NCBI GenBank assembly: GCA_902558375.1
Contig: CACEDQ010000001.1
Location: 25,929 to 89,928, forward strand
Length of the DNA stretch: 64,000 bases
From: an uncultured SAR86 cluster bacterium
GTDB lineage: Bacteria > Pseudomonadota > Gammaproteobacteria > Magnimaribacterales > D2472
Direction of reading: 5' to 3'
The notes under the pieces were generated by a model. It saw nothing but the letters and a program-made list of their open reading frames with translations. It searched no databases and was not told the DNA's origin. Positions 15,840-22,168 of this stretch are shown piece after piece; within the stretch, counting starts at the first letter, position 1; each line of letters starts with the position of its first letter. Both the position numbers and the translations under genes were made by a program.

Positions 15840-16618
15840 TGTTTTTTATATACTTCTTAGCTTTCTTTGCATTCATTCCAATCTTGGCATATCTGTTATC
15901 GCAAAATACAAACAATAAAGGATATATTTTTGGAATCTCTTTTTTAGTTGTTCTTGTTTGTTTATTTACTGTTGTTGGAAAATACTCATTCTTAGGCTCA
16001 ATTAAAAATCAAAAGATCAATTCAGAAATTCTTATGAATATTAACTTTAATAATAAAATTTCTGAAAATATTACAAGAGAATTTAATAACAATATTAGCA
16101 ATGAAGATAAAGTGTATTGGCTTCAAGGTTATATTAATAAAGCCATTGAAGACAGTAAATTCATTGCTGCTGAAAGCTTAATTTCTATCTCAGAGCAATA
16201 CTTTCAAACTACAGATGAAAAATTTATTTTTTATACCTTATACACAAAACTTAGAGACGCAAAATTCCCTGATTTTGCAAAGTCTAAATTAATTATAAAT
16301 CTTCATTCTCCACCAGAGTGCTCTAATTTTTTTGGTACAGCAGAAGTATTTATCATGAATGGTCCAAAAATACCCATAGCCTCAAAAAAATTCACGGATT
16401 CTTCTGAATTTGAGTTAGAAAATATTCATTCCTCCATTCCTGGTTTTGATTTGGCTTCTGCCTATCTAAATCAAGAAACTCTCGATTTAAAAGTATCATT
16501 AAACTGCCCTGCTACAGCCTCTATTTTTTATTCTGAAAACGCTTTGTTAATTGATAACAATCAGCCTGTAAATTCCTATAATATTAAGGCAAATGAATGG
16601 TTTAAAAGGGAACAATAG
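15839..16618 (+). CDS. Divergent CcmI/CycH-like protein
   Basis: Follows ccmH; two N-terminal TM helices; NGPKIPIA..IPGFDLAS resembles the CcmI C-terminal domain. Confidence 0.55.
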   Translation: MFFIYFLAFFAFIPILAYLLSQNTNNKGYIFGISFLVVLVCLFTVVGKYSFLGSIKNQKINSEILMNINFNNKISENITREFNNNISNEDKVYWLQGYINKAIEDSKFIAAESLISISEQYFQTTDEKFIFYTLYTKLRDAKFPDFAKSKLIINLHSPPECSNFFGTAEVFIMNGPKIPIASKKFTDSSEFELENIHSSIPGFDLASAYLNQETLDLKVSLNCPATASIFYSENALLIDNNQPVNSYNIKANEWFKREQ

Positions 16619-16651
16619 TTTAATATATCTCTAAGAAAAATATTCTCAATA

Positions 16652-19639
16652 ATGCAGCTTAAACATATAAAACTCGCAGGTTTTAAAAGTTTCGTAGATC
16701 CAACGAAGATATCTTTTCCTTCAAATTTAGTAGGCGTAGTCGGCCCTAATGGCTGTGGTAAATCAAACGTAATTGATGCCGTAAGATGGGTTTTAGGAGA
16801 GCTCTCTGCTAAAAATCTTCGTGGGGAGTCTATGGTAGACGTCATCTTCAATGGCTCAGAAAATAGAAAGCCATCAGGACAGTGCAGTATTGAATTACTT
16901 TTTGATAATTCTAGTGGAAAGATTGGTGGCGAATATACTTCCTATAATGAAATTTCCATCAAAAGATTAATGACAAGAGATGCACAGTCAACTTATTTTA
17001 TAAATAGCACAAAGTGTAGAAGAAAAGATGTTCAAGATATATTTCTAGGAACAGGTTTAGGACCAAGTTCTTATGCAATTATTGAACAAGGAATGGTCAG
17101 TAGGCTTGTAAGCGCAAAGCCAGAAGAGCTTAGAACCCATATTGAAGAGGCTGCTGGTGTCTCTAAATATAGAGAAAGAAGAAGAGAAACGGAAAGTCGA
17201 ATTAAGAAGACAAAAGAGAACCTATCAAGAGTTAAGGATATAAAGGATGAAATAGAAAGGCTTATTAGAAGGCTTGAAAATCAAGCTAAAGCTGCTGAGA
17301 AATATAACAAGTTAAAAGAAGAGGAGAATCAGAAACAGACTGATATAGCAATTCTTTATTCACTTGAAGCTAAAAACAATAAAGACAAACTCCAAAAGAA
17401 CTTAGAAGGCTTAAATAGAGATCTCAAAATAAAACAGGCCGAATCAGATTCAAAACAAGCACAAATCGATGATTATAGAACCCAGAATGAGTCTGTAATT
17501 AATGCTTATGAGGATGCTCAGAAAAATTTTTATACAATAGGTGCTGAAATAGCTAAGCATGAATCAGATCTTCATAACATCAATAAATCTGAAGCCACTA
17601 ATTTAGAAGCCCTTGAAAGAGCTCAAAAAAGTTACAAAGATGCTCTTCAAAAAGAGTCTGCATTTAAGGACTTAAGTCCAAAAGAAAAAGAATTAAAGCT
17701 AAATATTGCTATTGTTAAGGCTTTTGATGCTCTTGAGAAAAAAAATACAATCGGTGTATCAATTAAACCGCTCGAAGACCAAATAAACATCAAACAAAAT
17801 GAATTAGATTCGAAGCAGGATATTTTTGACGGTATTAAAGCTAATAAAGACAAAATCGTAAATGAGATAAAAGATATTCAAAAAAATCAATTTTCTATTG
17901 ATGCTGAAATTGCAAGAATCGAAGGCTCAATAAAAAATCTTAATAATTTAGCAGAAAATGCAAAATCAGATTTTGAAGAGGCTTCACGTAATTATGCAAA
18001 TGCTGTTGAAAAAGAGTCAAATAATGAACATTTAAGCCCTAAAGAAAAAGCAATACACTTACTAGATTCAATCACAGACTTACTTAAATCATTTGGATCA
18101 AGCGCAGATAAAGTGAATTCAAAATTATCTGAGCTGAAAGAACTCCTAATGAGCATATTAAAAATTGCTTCTGATCAATCAAAAAGCTTTACTGCAGAAT
18201 ATTTAAATCAAAAAAATAGAGCAGAAGAGGCTATTAACAAAGCTAAGGAAGATAAAAAAATTGCTGAAACTAAGCTTGAAGACCTTAACAGTCAAAGAAT
18301 CTCAATTGGTAATCAACTGGAATCACAGATTAATATTCAGACTAATATAGATAACCAATTGCAAGAAATGGATAGCAATAAATCTGTTGTATCAAATGAA
18401 CTTAGAAACCTTGAGAAAGAAATTAATGATTTAAGGCTTGAGCTAAGAACTCACGAAATTAATTTAGAAAATGCTTCAATGGTTTTAGAGAAAGCAGAGG
18501 TAAGTATTTCAGACCTTGATTCAGCACAATACAAGGGGATGGATTTAAAAGGGCTTGAGGTCTCTTTAGATGAAATACAAAAAAACATTGCTCAATTAGG
18601 TTCATTTAATTTAGCTGCTCCCGAGGAGTACTTGAGCAGAGAAAACGAATTAAAAAAATTAATTGAAGAAGCTGAAATAAGGAAGTCTGAAATTCAAGTA
18701 ATTATGGATGGCTTGGTAGAAAAGAGCTCTCAAGCAGAATCTGAATTAACAGCCATAAGGCAAAAACAATCTCAGTTTAATGAAAGCTTAAGAGACCTTG
18801 AAAATCAAAAAAATGTAGCTGAATTAGATCTTAAATCAATTGCAGAGAAAGTTACTAATCTGAGGTTGGATTTAAAAACCCATGAAATTAATTTAGATAA
18901 CGCAAATACTAAAATTAAAGAGGCTGGTTTAAATATTGAAAATATAGATTATTCAAAATATGAAGACATGGATCTTAATGTCCTCCAAGATTCACTTGCA
19001 GATATACAGGCAAAAATCATACGTCTAGGAGCTATCAACCTTGCAGCTCCAGAGGAAATAGCTGCTGAATCAAAAAGGAAAGAAGAGCTAGATGTTCAAT
19101 ACAACGATCTTACTGAAGCTCTTGAAAAACTTACAGGCGCCATAAAAACAATTGATCTTGAAACAAAAACAAGATTTCAAGATAGTTTTGATTCAATAAA
19201 CAAAAGAATGAAAGAGGTATTTTCAAAGTTATTTGGTGGTGGTTTCGCTGAACTTGCTCTTACTGAAAATGATGCACTAAATGCTGGTGTGGTAATTATG
19301 GCTAGACCTCCAGGAAAGAAAAATTCATCAATTTCTCAATTATCAGGGGGTGAAAAAGCTTTAACTGCTTTAGCTCTTGTTTTTGCAATTTTTGAACTCA
19401 ATCCTGCGCCTTTTTGTATTTTAGACGAAGTAGATGCTCCATTAGACGATTTAAATACTATGCGTTTTATAAATATGGTTGAGGAGATGTCAAAGACAGT
19501 TCAATTCATATTTATAACCCATAATAAAGTTTCTATGGAAAAAAGTGATCATTTAATGGGAGTTACAATGCAAGAAGCTGGTGTCTCTAGAATGGTTTCT
19601 GTTGACGTCAATCAAGCTCTAGAGTTTGCTGAAGTATGA
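16652..19639 (+). CDS. smc: Chromosome segregation ATPase SMC (atypical: no recognisable hinge, duplicated arm segments)
   Basis: GFKSF, GPNGCGKSN, IEQG, EEAAG, LSGGEK, LDEVDAPLD, ITHNK; upstream of zipA. Confidence 0.95.
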   Translation: MQLKHIKLAGFKSFVDPTKISFPSNLVGVVGPNGCGKSNVIDAVRWVLGELSAKNLRGESMVDVIFNGSENRKPSGQCSIELLFDNSSGKIGGEYTSYNEISIKRLMTRDAQSTYFINSTKCRRKDVQDIFLGTGLGPSSYAIIEQGMVSRLVSAKPEELRTHIEEAAGVSKYRERRRETESRIKKTKENLSRVKDIKDEIERLIRRLENQAKAAEKYNKLKEEENQKQTDIAILYSLEAKNNKDKLQKNLEGLNRDLKIKQAESDSKQAQIDDYRTQNESVINAYEDAQKNFYTIGAEIAKHESDLHNINKSEATNLEALERAQKSYKDALQKESAFKDLSPKEKELKLNIAIVKAFDALEKKNTIGVSIKPLEDQINIKQNELDSKQDIFDGIKANKDKIVNEIKDIQKNQFSIDAEIARIEGSIKNLNNLAENAKSDFEEASRNYANAVEKESNNEHLSPKEKAIHLLDSITDLLKSFGSSADKVNSKLSELKELLMSILKIASDQSKSFTAEYLNQKNRAEEAINKAKEDKKIAETKLEDLNSQRISIGNQLESQINIQTNIDNQLQEMDSNKSVVSNELRNLEKEINDLRLELRTHEINLENASMVLEKAEVSISDLDSAQYKGMDLKGLEVSLDEIQKNIAQLGSFNLAAPEEYLSRENELKKLIEEAEIRKSEIQVIMDGLVEKSSQAESELTAIRQKQSQFNESLRDLENQKNVAELDLKSIAEKVTNLRLDLKTHEINLDNANTKIKEAGLNIENIDYSKYEDMDLNVLQDSLADIQAKIIRLGAINLAAPEEIAAESKRKEELDVQYNDLTEALEKLTGAIKTIDLETKTRFQDSFDSINKRMKEVFSKLFGGGFAELALTENDALNAGVVIMARPPGKKNSSISQLSGGEKALTALALVFAIFELNPAPFCILDEVDAPLDDLNTMRFINMVEEMSKTVQFIFITHNKVSMEKSDHLMGVTMQEAGVSRMVSVDVNQALEFAEV
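17330..18049 (+). repeat. Two diverged tandem 360-nt (120 aa) units in the SMC N-terminal arm
   Basis: IAI at 17345/17705, IKQ.E.DSKQ at 17429/17789, LSPKEK at 17672/18032; each pair exactly 360 nt apart. Confidence 0.9.
18197..19054 (+). repeat. Two diverged tandem 429-nt (143 aa) units in the SMC C-terminal arm
   Basis: EYL at 18197/18626, HEINL at 18452/18881, NLAAPEE at 18608/19037; each pair exactly 429 nt apart. Confidence 0.92.
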
Positions 19640-20274
19640 TAAGTTCCAATATAGATATATACTTAATTGGTTTTTCTGTTCTTATATTTCTTATAATCAC
19701 ATTTCTTTTTATAAGAAAAATTTCTAATAAAGGAGAGCTCAAAGTAAAAATTGAGCCTGTCACAGATACATTTGAAATAAAAGAATTTGATGAAATTGAT
19801 ATAAAGTCTCAACAAGCATTTGATTTTGATGATAAAGATCATATTGATTATCAAGAGCAAAAACTTGTTGTTTTAAATTTAATATCCATTGATAAGTCTA
19901 TGTTTGAAATCGATCAAGTATATGGTTTTATGAGCAATGTTGGAGCAACCTTATCACAGGGGTTCTTCGTTATAAAAGATAACAATAATAAGGAGTCATT
20001 TAGAATAGCTAACGCTTTAAATCCTGGCACATTTGAATCAGAGACTAGTACTTTTGCAATCATTGTTGCTGCTGATCTCAATAACGTCTTAGATCCAATT
20101 AAAACAGTAAAAGACATGGTAAATTTTGCTTATGAATTTACTGAAAAGTTTTATGCAAATATCTGTGATGAAGAAAGAACACCAATAACCAAACAAATGA
20201 TTTCGCATATTGAATCTCAAGCTCAAGAGATAGCGAGATTAAAACAACTTGCAGTTGCTGAAAAATCTGACTAA
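19636..20274 (+). CDS. zipA: Cell division protein ZipA (short)
   Basis: N-terminal TM helix; FRIANALNPGTF and ICDEER match the ZipA C-terminal domain; smc-zipA synteny. Confidence 0.85.
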   Translation: MISSNIDIYLIGFSVLIFLIITFLFIRKISNKGELKVKIEPVTDTFEIKEFDEIDIKSQQAFDFDDKDHIDYQEQKLVVLNLISIDKSMFEIDQVYGFMSNVGATLSQGFFVIKDNNNKESFRIANALNPGTFESETSTFAIIVAADLNNVLDPIKTVKDMVNFAYEFTEKFYANICDEERTPITKQMISHIESQAQEIARLKQLAVAEKSD

Positions 20275-21557
20275 TGAAGCCGTGGAAAATAATTCAAAAA
20301 CTTGAAAGTGATAATAGTAGATTATTTAAAGAAAACGTTATTGAAGAAAATATTAATGACCTAGACTTTCAAGAAGGTCTATCAATGTGCCTAGATGCAT
20401 TGGTAACATTTGGCGTTAAACAAGTTCCTAAATCTGATAAAAATGGAAAAGGATTAAGTTGGAGTTCTTTCAAGAACTCCGCCTTACTATTAATAGAAAG
20501 AGAAAAAACCGGTCACGCTGCTAGGGATGAAATTTTGGCGCTAATGGATAAAGCTACTTTAGAAGAGTGGAATGATTGGTATAGAAGAATCTTAATAAAG
20601 GATTTGAGATGCGGCGTAAGCGAGAAGACAGTCAACAATGTTGCAAAAAAAATGGATATTCAATTTAGGGTGCCTGTTTTTGCTTGCATGCTATCTCATG
20701 ATGGAATGAAACATCCAAAAAAGATTAAAGGTAACTGTTTAATTGAATATAAATATGATGGAGTGAGGGTAATAGCGATAACAAAGAAAAATAATACAAC
20801 TCTTTATAGCAGAAATGGAAAAATATTTAGCAATTTCCCTCATATTGAAGAAGCATTAAGCAAACCTGAATTTAATAATATGGTTTTTGATGGTGAGGTC
20901 ATGAGCAATGACTTTCAATCATTAATGAAACAAGTTCATAGGAAAACCAATGCAAAAACAGAAGATGCATATTTAGCTTTGTTTGATATCTTGCCTCTTA
21001 AAGAGTTTAACGATGGCAAAAGCAAGCTTACCACCCTTGAAAGAAAACATAATTTAGAGAAATTTTCTAAAAAATTTCCTTCATGTATCAAAATTGTTGA
21101 CTATCAGGTCGTAGATTTTGATAAAGAAGAGGGTGAAGCAATATATTCTAAAATGAATAAAGAAGCACTAGATCGTGGTTATGAAGGATTAATGATAAAG
21201 CCTGTGAATGATTTATATGAATGCAAAAGAAGTCATGCCTGGCTAAAAATGAAACCCTTCATTGAGGTCACATTAAAAATCACAGAAGTTCATGAAGGCA
21301 CTGGCAGGCATGCAGGGAAGCTTGGTGCATTTTCAGTAGAGGGTGCTGATGATGGTAAATTTTTCTCTCTAAATGTAGGTAGTGGGTTAACTGATGAAAA
21401 TAGAGAAAAGTTTTGGGAATATAAAGATTCATTAATTGGACAATTAATCGAAATAAGAGCAGATGCTGTTACTCAAAGCATGGAAGGTGAAAATTACAGC
21501 TTAAGATTTCCTCGTTTCAAAACATTTAGAGGTTTTAAACCGGGTGAAAAAATTTAA
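20274..21557 (+). CDS. ATP-dependent DNA ligase
   Basis: Motif I EYKYDGVR, III FDGEV, IIIa LFDIL, IV EGLMIK, V WLKMK, VI SLRFPRF; no Zn finger, HhH or BRCT of LigA. Confidence 0.95.
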   Translation: MKPWKIIQKLESDNSRLFKENVIEENINDLDFQEGLSMCLDALVTFGVKQVPKSDKNGKGLSWSSFKNSALLLIEREKTGHAARDEILALMDKATLEEWNDWYRRILIKDLRCGVSEKTVNNVAKKMDIQFRVPVFACMLSHDGMKHPKKIKGNCLIEYKYDGVRVIAITKKNNTTLYSRNGKIFSNFPHIEEALSKPEFNNMVFDGEVMSNDFQSLMKQVHRKTNAKTEDAYLALFDILPLKEFNDGKSKLTTLERKHNLEKFSKKFPSCIKIVDYQVVDFDKEEGEAIYSKMNKEALDRGYEGLMIKPVNDLYECKRSHAWLKMKPFIEVTLKITEVHEGTGRHAGKLGAFSVEGADDGKFFSLNVGSGLTDENREKFWEYKDSLIGQLIEIRADAVTQSMEGENYSLRFPRFKTFRGFKPGEKI

Positions 21558-22168
21558 TGAATATTAGATTTCTAAAAACTGCATTTTTTATATTTTTAAT
21601 ATTGTCATTTCAATCTTGTATTACGACACCTCCACAAAATCCAGATAATATTTGTTTAATATTTGAAGAAAAGAAAAGTTGGTATAAAGCAGCAATGAGG
21701 TCTGAGAAACGATGGAAGATTCCACCATACGTATTAATGTCATTTGTATATCAAGAATCGAGTTTTAAAGCAGATGCAAAGCCTGACAGAACAAAGTTAT
21801 TATGGGTCATACCATGGAAGAGACAATCTACTGCATCTGGATACTCTCAAGCATTGAATATGACATGGGATGATTATATTGATGAAACTGGTAATTCTGG
21901 AGCAAGCAGAAGCAATTTTAGTGACTCTGCCGATTTTATAGGATGGTATGCATCTAAGGGTTACTATCAGGGATTTGATAGATTAGATGCTAGATCATTA
22001 TATCTTGCCTACCATGAAGGATATGGCGGCTTTAAGAAAAAAACTTATAGAAAAAAACCATGGCTTATAAAAGTTGCTGATAGGGTGCAGGCTAGATCTA
22101 CAAAGTACCAACAGCAGTATTGGAGTTGTGCTGGAGAGCTAAAGAAAAAGAAATATTTCTTTTTTTAG
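21557..22168 (+). CDS. SLT-like transglycosylase lipoprotein
   Basis: Lipobox FQSC; QESSF catalytic Glu; SGYSQA; YLAYHEG. Confidence 0.8.
   Translation: MNIRFLKTAFFIFLILSFQSCITTPPQNPDNICLIFEEKKSWYKAAMRSEKRWKIPPYVLMSFVYQESSFKADAKPDRTKLLWVIPWKRQSTASGYSQALNMTWDDYIDETGNSGASRSNFSDSADFIGWYASKGYYQGFDRLDARSLYLAYHEGYGGFKKKTYRKKPWLIKVADRVQARSTKYQQQYWSCAGELKKKKYFFF

Follow-up and report, generated by a model that had tools for sequence, protein, structure and literature searches.

Which enzyme joins DNA strands in a bacterium whose ligA position holds the gene for a different ligase? The question is raised by a 64,000-nucleotide stretch of the genome of an uncultured SAR86 cluster bacterium (contig CACEDQ010000001.1; hereafter the window, with a GC content of ~32%). 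In it, a 427-amino-acid open reading frame (ORF) for an ATP-dependent DNA ligase lies between zipA and a lytic transglycosylase gene (SLT), where relatives can carry ligA, the gene for the NAD-dependent ligase LigA. Comparison of sequences suggests that a phage-type ATP ligase very probably fills the ligA slot as the only ligase gene, having displaced LigA in place.

The evidence for a single slot comes from synteny. The window's family (f1; ten genera, genomes of ~1.0-1.5 Mb) is one of four (f1-f4) in its order, and most likely corresponds to the 'Suzuki' family (D2472 in GTDB) that PMC11582366 describes within the SAR86 order Magnimaribacterales. Loci were fetched from 50 genomes, and the window proteins were matched to their ORFs. 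All 50 loci show the order ccmF-dsbE-ccmH-(ccmI)-smc-zipA-(ligase)-SLT, and in most of them a reversed M16 peptidase gene comes next. The slot holds an ATP ligase in 27 genomes and ligA in 23, always between zipA (or smc) and the SLT gene; zipA is too divergent for BLASTP in two genomes of f4. Carriers of ligA in the slot include G004, G013 and G022, which are of the same genus, and all 10 outgroup genomes examined, and ligA is packed there as tightly as the ATP ligase, with a 23-base overlap with the SLT gene in G004. No relics of ligA were found in 26 ATP-ligase loci, nor of the ATP ligase in ligA loci, where tblastn matches were at chance level (all E ≥0.086). A reading made earlier from the window's sequence alone (the sequence-only reading) had proposed, from the conserved gammaproteobacterial order smc-zipA-ligA, that the ligase had been displaced in situ by a non-orthologous enzyme; synteny, with either ligase type in one slot, bears this out.

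The genes of the block and the parts of the ligase are as follows (positions in the window).

16652..19639, + strand: smc (995 amino acids), first gene of the smc-zipA-ligase-SLT block; SMC_N, 5.1e-56; position constant in 50 of the 50 loci compared.
19636..20274, + strand: zipA (212 amino acids), its stop codon overlapping the ligase start; ZipA_C, 6.5e-13.
20274..21557, + strand: ATP-dependent DNA ligase of the Pmar-Lig / AD-Lig P type (427 amino acids); PF01068, PF14743, PDB 6rau at E 3e-133.
20274..20717, + strand: ligase N-terminal region, residues 1-148, matching no Pfam model; aligns with the N-terminal DNA-binding domain of Pmar-Lig.
20718..21254, + strand: nucleotidyltransferase (adenylation) domain, residues 149-327; PF01068, 85.1 bits.
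20751..20753, + strand: codon of Lys160, the predicted AMP-accepting lysine of motif I (K-Y-D-G-V-R); translation IEYKYDGVRV.
21294..21530, + strand: OB-fold domain of the OB_2 type, residues 341-419; PF14743, 44 bits.
21557..22168, + strand: SLT_4 lytic transglycosylase (203 amino acids), its start codon overlapping the ligase stop; SLT_4, 3.5e-71.

On the + strand these genes follow ccmF-dsbE-ccmH-ccmI. Both ligase junctions read TAATG with one base in common: at 20272-20276 the zipA stop TAA (20272-20274) meets the ligase ATG (20274-20276), and at 21555-21559 the ligase stop TAA (21555-21557) meets the next ATG (21557-21559). These stop/start overlaps suggest that the ligase is translationally coupled to zipA and to the SLT gene, and it is probably co-transcribed with the smc-zipA-SLT block.

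The protein was assigned to a class by its domains and its solved relatives. Pfam matches are DNA_ligase_A_M (PF01068; 85.1 bits against a cut-off of 26.2) and DNA_ligase_OB_2 (PF14743; 44 bits against 28), and nothing in the 427 residues matches the NAD-ligase domain (PF01653) or the accessory domains of LigA. In a phmmer search of PDB the best matches (E 3e-133 to 3e-130, ligase residues 5-427) were 6rau, 6ras and 6rar, with 6rce; at the sequence level, these residues align with residues 10-442 of 6rau (E 3.1e-133), and the solved structures that come next, with E 1e-21 or weaker, are those of archaeal and phage ligases. According to a 2020 review (PMC7470946), 6rau, 6ras and 6rar are Pmar-Lig, the ATP-dependent ligase of Prochlorococcus marinus, whose helical DNA-binding domain at the N-terminus is not annotated in Pfam. 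The Pmar-Lig, or AD-Lig P, structures are PDB 6RAR, 6RAS, 6RAU and 6RCE (PMC6698739; 10.1101/2020.05.11.089284), and the enzyme uses ATP, not NAD, in sealing nicked duplex DNA (preprint 10.1101/2020.05.11.089284). Motif I (KxDGxR) is present as K160-Y-D-G-V-R, aligned with KLDGVR of 6rau, and K160, D162, G163 and R165 are invariant in 33 aligned relatives. By its sequence, then, the window protein is a member of the Pmar-Lig / AD-Lig P type of ATP-dependent ligases. The sequence-only reading had noted a Prochlorococcus-like N-terminus, and the full-length phmmer match shows that resemblance to be real; its ATP-type ligase with a TAATG overlap to zipA and an overlap to the next gene agrees with both junctions and the Pfam domains, and the signal peptide that it reported missing is likewise not apparent in the hydrophilic N-terminus, as read by eye.

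Other classes of ATP ligase fit poorly, and all NCBIfam models of the named bacterial classes score far below their cut-offs. Lig E was rejected on the PRK09125 score (71.9 bits, where the cut-off is 200), an N-terminal extension of 148 residues and the hydrophilic N-terminus; Lig D, the non-homologous end joining (NHEJ) ligase, was rejected on TIGR02779 (88.1 against 227.75) and TIGR02776 (75.3 against 373.2). The DNA_lig_bact model gave 61 against a cut-off of 400. What Lig E, B, C and D have in common with the window ligase is the nucleotidyltransferase core, and Lig E also has an OB domain of the OB_2 type (PMC7470946). LigA resembles the window ligase in genomic position, tight packing against zipA, overlap with the SLT gene and presumed cellular role; it differs in its adenylation family (PF01653 rather than PF01068) and its length (~660-740 rather than 427 amino acids), and it takes AMP from NAD, whereas the window ligase is a predicted ATP user. 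The window protein would thus be a three-domain ligase with an N-terminal DNA-binding domain, an adenylation domain carrying Lys160 and an OB_2 domain. By homology, ATP would adenylylate Lys160, the AMP would pass to the 5' phosphate at a nick, and attack by the 3' OH would seal the nick and free AMP.

If LigA has been displaced, an intact ligA is expected nowhere else in the genome, and the sequence-only reading had named such a gene as the finding that would overturn it. The assembly of the window's genome (G000), which is 71.8% complete, has 31 contigs with 1,008,300 bases in all. A search at E up to 1 found PF01653 nowhere in it, and the window ligase is its one and only PF01068 match. Among 60 relatives examined by profile search, ligA was found in 11 of the 36 from f1 and in all 24 from the other three families; the ATP ligase was found in 25 of the 36 and in none of the 24, and each of the 25 carriers has one PF01068 match over the cut-off and no second ATP ligase. 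A wider sample consisted of G000 and 75 family genomes at least 80% complete. Of these 76, 36 have PF01653 and 33 have PF01068, which leaves 35 with ligA only, 32 with the ATP ligase only, one with both and eight with neither, so that the two types exclude each other in 67 of the 68 genomes having either. The sole genome with both, G005 (260 contigs), owes its extra ligA to a fragment at a contig end; this fragment is probably foreign, since it is only 30% identical to the family ligA. The single-contig carriers G018, G025 and G031 give no match to PF01653, and searching them with a ligA protein turned up nothing but a 14-bit stretch with 4 stop codons in G031. No intact ligA was thus found in G000, by Pfam model, or in these three relatives, by Pfam model and ligA protein query.

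With no second ligase gene found, the ATP ligase would be the only DNA ligase of the cell, joining Okazaki fragments, serving repair and taking over from LigA. Its ratio of nonsynonymous to synonymous divergence (dN/dS) is 0.026-0.052 (8 pairs), similar to that of smc and below that of ligA (0.077-0.101, 3 pairs). The ATP ligase is therefore under strong purifying selection, which together with its status as the sole ligase suggests an essential role at the replication fork. Four RNA libraries (3 studies) include contigs that match the gene at 90-99% identity, such as an 891-base contig over 20373-21263, and one RNA-library contig bridges the zipA-ligase junction. These contigs suggest, though weakly, that the ligase gene is transcribed.

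The origin of the gene was sought among its closest sequences. In a representative library the best relative outside the family is 58% identical, and relatives at 47-55% identity in named genomes include those of Prochlorococcus, alphaproteobacterial single-amplified genomes (SAGs) and metagenome-assembled genomes (MAGs), and a few MAGs of other phyla; by BLASTP, the Prochlorococcus genomic copies are 51-53% identical to the window ligase. IMG/VR gave 600 pattern matches, of which 570 encode a ligase relative, and the best 80 were kept (L111-L190). Among these best 80 of 570 are the closest sequences outside the family, up to 68% identical over the full length and with the same domains. They lie among small same-strand phage-like ORFs, unlike the window ligase, which lies between core cell-division genes; on L111 and L114, 7 of 10 neighbouring proteins have PHROG matches. 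Ligases of cultured phages in GenBank (1831 matching records) are all <60% identical, with values of 29-38% among the matches listed.

In a tree of 122 sequences, the family ATP ligases form one clade (100 by the Shimodaira-Hasegawa-like approximate likelihood ratio test, SH-aLRT) nested among viral contigs. Prochlorococcus forms a separate clade (100), to which another viral contig is sister (99), and several starred branches lie between the two clades. Because the clades fall in different viral subclades, these results support independent acquisitions by the family and by Prochlorococcus, each from a marine viral ligase pool; the sequence-only reading had suggested a possible second independent case, and this phylogeny favours it. 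The Prochlorococcus enzyme has the same domain plan (N-terminal DNA-binding domain, nucleotidyltransferase and OB_2), and it too is encoded exactly where relatives have their NAD ligase, with no intact NAD ligase left (10.1101/2020.05.11.089284). The cases differ in host phylum and in locus, which is downstream of recA in Prochlorococcus (10.1101/2020.05.11.089284) and smc-zipA-lig-SLT in the window. Moreover, Prochlorococcus strain SS51 retains NAD-ligase fragments of 249 and 255 amino acids, whereas no truncated copies were found in G000 or the single-contig carriers, and only in the window's family do congeneric species alternate between ligase types. Two further copies were considered as displacement cases and rejected as viral sequences inside bins. 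The ligase of a Neomarinimicrobiota MAG is identical to that of a viral contig, and that genome also has a normal ligA; the ligase of a 'Pacearchaeota' MAG is near-identical to that of another viral contig. Separately, the 'Rickettsiales' MAG MED657 carries the same ligase on two contigs and a third copy besides, and public MAGs with foreign contigs include L038, L037, L039/L040, L101 and L064, with foreign ligA pieces in G005 and G077.

Displacement in place could have happened once or could have been followed by further exchange. With 45 genomes, a tree of four flanking proteins (ccmF, smc, SLT and M16), which is not a genome-wide species tree, requires the ligase type to have changed at least 4 times; with 49 genomes the minimum is 5. 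Three sets of sister genomes, each joined at 100, differ in type: G151 (ligA) and G135 (ATP), G031 (ATP) and G131 (ligA), and G036 (ATP) and G029 with G129 (ligA). The ligA trio G004, G013 and G022 is nested among ATP carriers. The G036 ligase is 87% identical to the window ligase while the G036 flanks are 50-73% identical, with a dN between G000 and G036 of 0.080 for the ligase against 0.184-0.390 for the flanks. The G036 ligase falls inside genus g1 (100/100), and a tree keeping g1 together without it is rejected in the approximately unbiased (AU) test (p-AU 0.031). Sliding-window DNA identity between the G036 locus and genus g1 showed no sharp recombination borders (ligase 72-89%, zipA 57-72%, SLT 70-77%), so the transfer is argued from trees and dN. 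The ligA tree, which left out G151 (placed on the flank tree only), mirrors the flank tree. The pattern fits a ligA that was kept by vertical descent and an ATP ligase that spread horizontally into its slot. In such a history, the ancestor of the order would have had ligA between smc-zipA and SLT, and a marine-phage ligase would have been captured once in the family, replacing ligA exactly. Later it would have passed from one species of the family to another, always into that slot and presumably through recombination in the conserved flanks, leaving sister species with different ligase types.

Several points count against displacement and repeated switching. At 71.8% completeness G000 cannot itself carry the argument for the absence of ligA, which thus rests on relatives, and 8 of the 76 family genomes have neither ligase. 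G012, a genome of this kind in the first set, is without the adjacent SLT gene too, and its ligase locus is therefore probably unassembled. In G028 (96% complete, 2 contigs), a 1-base deletion in a run of T (L023:7086; T5, where G025 has T6) breaks the sole ligase gene in two; the adjoining M16 gene is split as well, which makes an assembly error more likely than a real frameshift. ATP use and essentiality are predicted from homology and from the lack of a second ligase gene. The RNA evidence consists of contigs, for which DNA carry-over is possible, and the viral label of the IMG/VR contigs was checked by neighbours for only 2 of the 80 loci kept. The group for the AU test on G036 was chosen once the tree had been seen. 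Finally, the flanks may themselves recombine: between the very close genomes G000 and G001 (L071), dS is 0.13 for smc, 0.25 for zipA, 0.47 for the ligase and 1.50 for SLT, which suggests recent recombination downstream of zipA. Since a tree of flanking genes is not that of the species, and divergence along the flanks is mosaic, the switch count is a minimum under one model and not a settled history.

The alternative that survives best accepts the displacement but holds it to be single, with the patchy distribution produced by later re-acquisition of ligA or by sorting of an old polymorphism. The family ATP ligases do form one clade, as this would predict, and change counts on an unrooted character cannot separate gain from loss. 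Re-acquired ligA genes, however, sit badly with a ligA tree that follows the flanks and in which G004, G013 and G022 form their own deep branch outside the other ligA lineages, as expected for vertical retention. Nor does a single event readily place the ATP ligase of G036 inside g1 when its flanks are sister to the ligA carriers G029 and G129. We therefore consider a single displacement unlikely, and favour capture of the ATP ligase followed by its spread between species.

The sequence-only reading had tentatively linked the swap to NAD economy, noting that nadB is missing from its usual locus, and one could suppose that cells unable to make NAD gave up an NAD-consuming ligase. Genes of NAD synthesis are indeed missing. 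NadA is found in 0 of 37 genomes of f1 and 0 of 8 of f4, against 12 of 16 in f2 and f3, and a true NadE (E ~1e-70, frames of ~540 amino acids) is present in all 16 genomes of f2 and f3, whereas for f1 and f4 NadE finds only weak N-terminal PP-loop matches, in frames of different length. None of five f1 genomes, taken from both ligase types, has nadB over the cut-off (0/5; the best matches look like SdhA) or NAPRTase (0/5), and PnuC was found in four. A 367-amino-acid CTP_transf_like protein of G018 was considered as a NadR candidate and rejected, with no NCBIfam match at E up to 1e-5, and no enzyme for the NMN adenylyltransferase step was identified. These results suggest that the family depends on imported NAD precursors (nicotinamide riboside or similar), and all ATP-ligase carriers lie in this seemingly dependent lineage. 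However, nadA, nadB and true nadE are equally missing in family carriers of ligA, such as G004 and G022; NadA and true NadE are missing in the sister family f4, in which ligA is present in 8 of 8 genomes; and within the family, ligase type does not track NAD gene content. In Salmonella, a 1989 study with T4 ligase in place of LigA reportedly saw NAD turnover unchanged. The absence of nadB thus stood, but NAD economy is not supported as the cause, and we judge it quite improbable that it drove the swap. Dependence on NAD precursors may have been a permissive background, which would not explain which species switched.

Another possibility is that the ATP ligase is an accessory repair enzyme and that an ordinary LigA is encoded elsewhere in a part of the genome left unassembled. 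The 31 contigs of G000 leave room for this, and accessory ATP ligases beside LigA, and not in place of it, are the rule in bacteria according to PMC7470946. The window ligase is instead the sole ligase gene found, with no other ligase family present. Unassembled sequence is also a poor explanation for three single-contig carriers that lack any PF01653 or ligA protein-query match, and accessory status a poor explanation for two types that share one slot and exclude each other across the family. We regard an accessory role as very improbable.

It is scarcely credible that the gene belongs to a prophage, a mobile island or a mis-binned viral contig with no role in host replication: its nearest relatives outside the family are indeed on viral contigs, and the Neomarinimicrobiota and 'Pacearchaeota' copies are identical or near-identical to such contigs, but core genes flank it with overlapping stop and start codons, its position is constant in 27 genomes including SAGs and single-contig assemblies, no phage genes were seen among the flanking ORFs of the window, dN/dS is 0.03-0.05, and the ligase tree largely tracks the flank tree within g1.

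A ligase of the same kind was also found in a low-GC alphaproteobacterial order represented by 42 genomes (G062-G104). PF01653 is matched in only 1 of the 42; the single contig concerned (G077, L064) is 71% identical to the ligA of the f4 genome G039 and has smc-zipA upstream, and is therefore a contaminant. About 29 of 41 genomes carry a full-length relative of the window ligase, which forms its own clade (100) in the tree, and the ligase loci (L044:6001-7320, L051, L053, L065-L070) have a GC content of 26-27%. By these searches the order seems to lack ligA altogether, which is possibly a third independent displacement. In the locus L044:3762-7320, the ATP ligase comes after a spore-photoproduct-lyase-like gene (TIGR04070, 2e-24, below cut-off) and a weakly Cas4-like gene (TIGR00372, 4.7e-6), and synteny of the neighbourhood is kept across L044, L051 and L053.

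Two observations concern the smc end of the window's block. A 91-amino-acid ORF lies antisense (- strand) across the ccmI-smc junction at 16576-16851 and is probably spurious. The length of smc is 995 amino acids in the window, genus g1, g4 and part of g6, and ~727-733 in other genera of the family; the extra ~265 residues align at ~31% identity to the adjoining coiled-coil region and look like an internal duplication.

As for the published record, the 2020 review knew of no bacterium without an NAD ligase (PMC7470946). A 2020 preprint claimed high-light Prochlorococcus as the first exception, with an ATP ligase at the identical position (10.1101/2020.05.11.089284), and a 2025 review still names Lig A the essential bacterial replicative ligase (PMC12133292). 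The SAR86 isolate paper makes no mention of DNA ligase; literature searches for SAR86 or SAR11 with 'ATP-dependent DNA ligase' gave viral-ecology papers only, and those for HIMB59, AEGEAN-169 or Pelagibacterales with 'DNA ligase' gave nothing relevant. No published report of ligase displacement in the window's family was found in the literature covered, which excluded subscription journals and supplements. These results support the view that displacement of LigA by a phage-type ligase has so far been published only for high-light Prochlorococcus and that the family is a second, independent lineage, with the added twist that ligase types alternate among congeneric species. For the wider proposal we lean in favour, though no further than that: phage-type ligases would have displaced LigA at least three times independently, in high-light Prochlorococcus, in about half of the species of this SAR86 family and in the alphaproteobacterial order of 42 species, and in SAR86 the two ligases would be interchangeable alleles of one slot that recombine between species, with at least five switches.

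LigA-based replication is treated as near-universal in bacteria, and on this rests the idea that they are cleanly divided from archaea and eukaryotes with their ATP ligases. SAR86 is among the most abundant heterotrophic groups of the surface ocean. If LigA has indeed been displaced at least three times in dominant, streamlined surface-ocean bacteria, these lineages would amount to a natural experiment, run several times over, into why other bacteria have kept NAD-dependent ligases. The finding matters for the use of LigA as a target of antibacterials and for sets of marker genes in which ligA is taken to be present, and the natural pairs G151/G135, G036/G029 and G031/G131 allow a comparison of what LigA offers over an ATP ligase.

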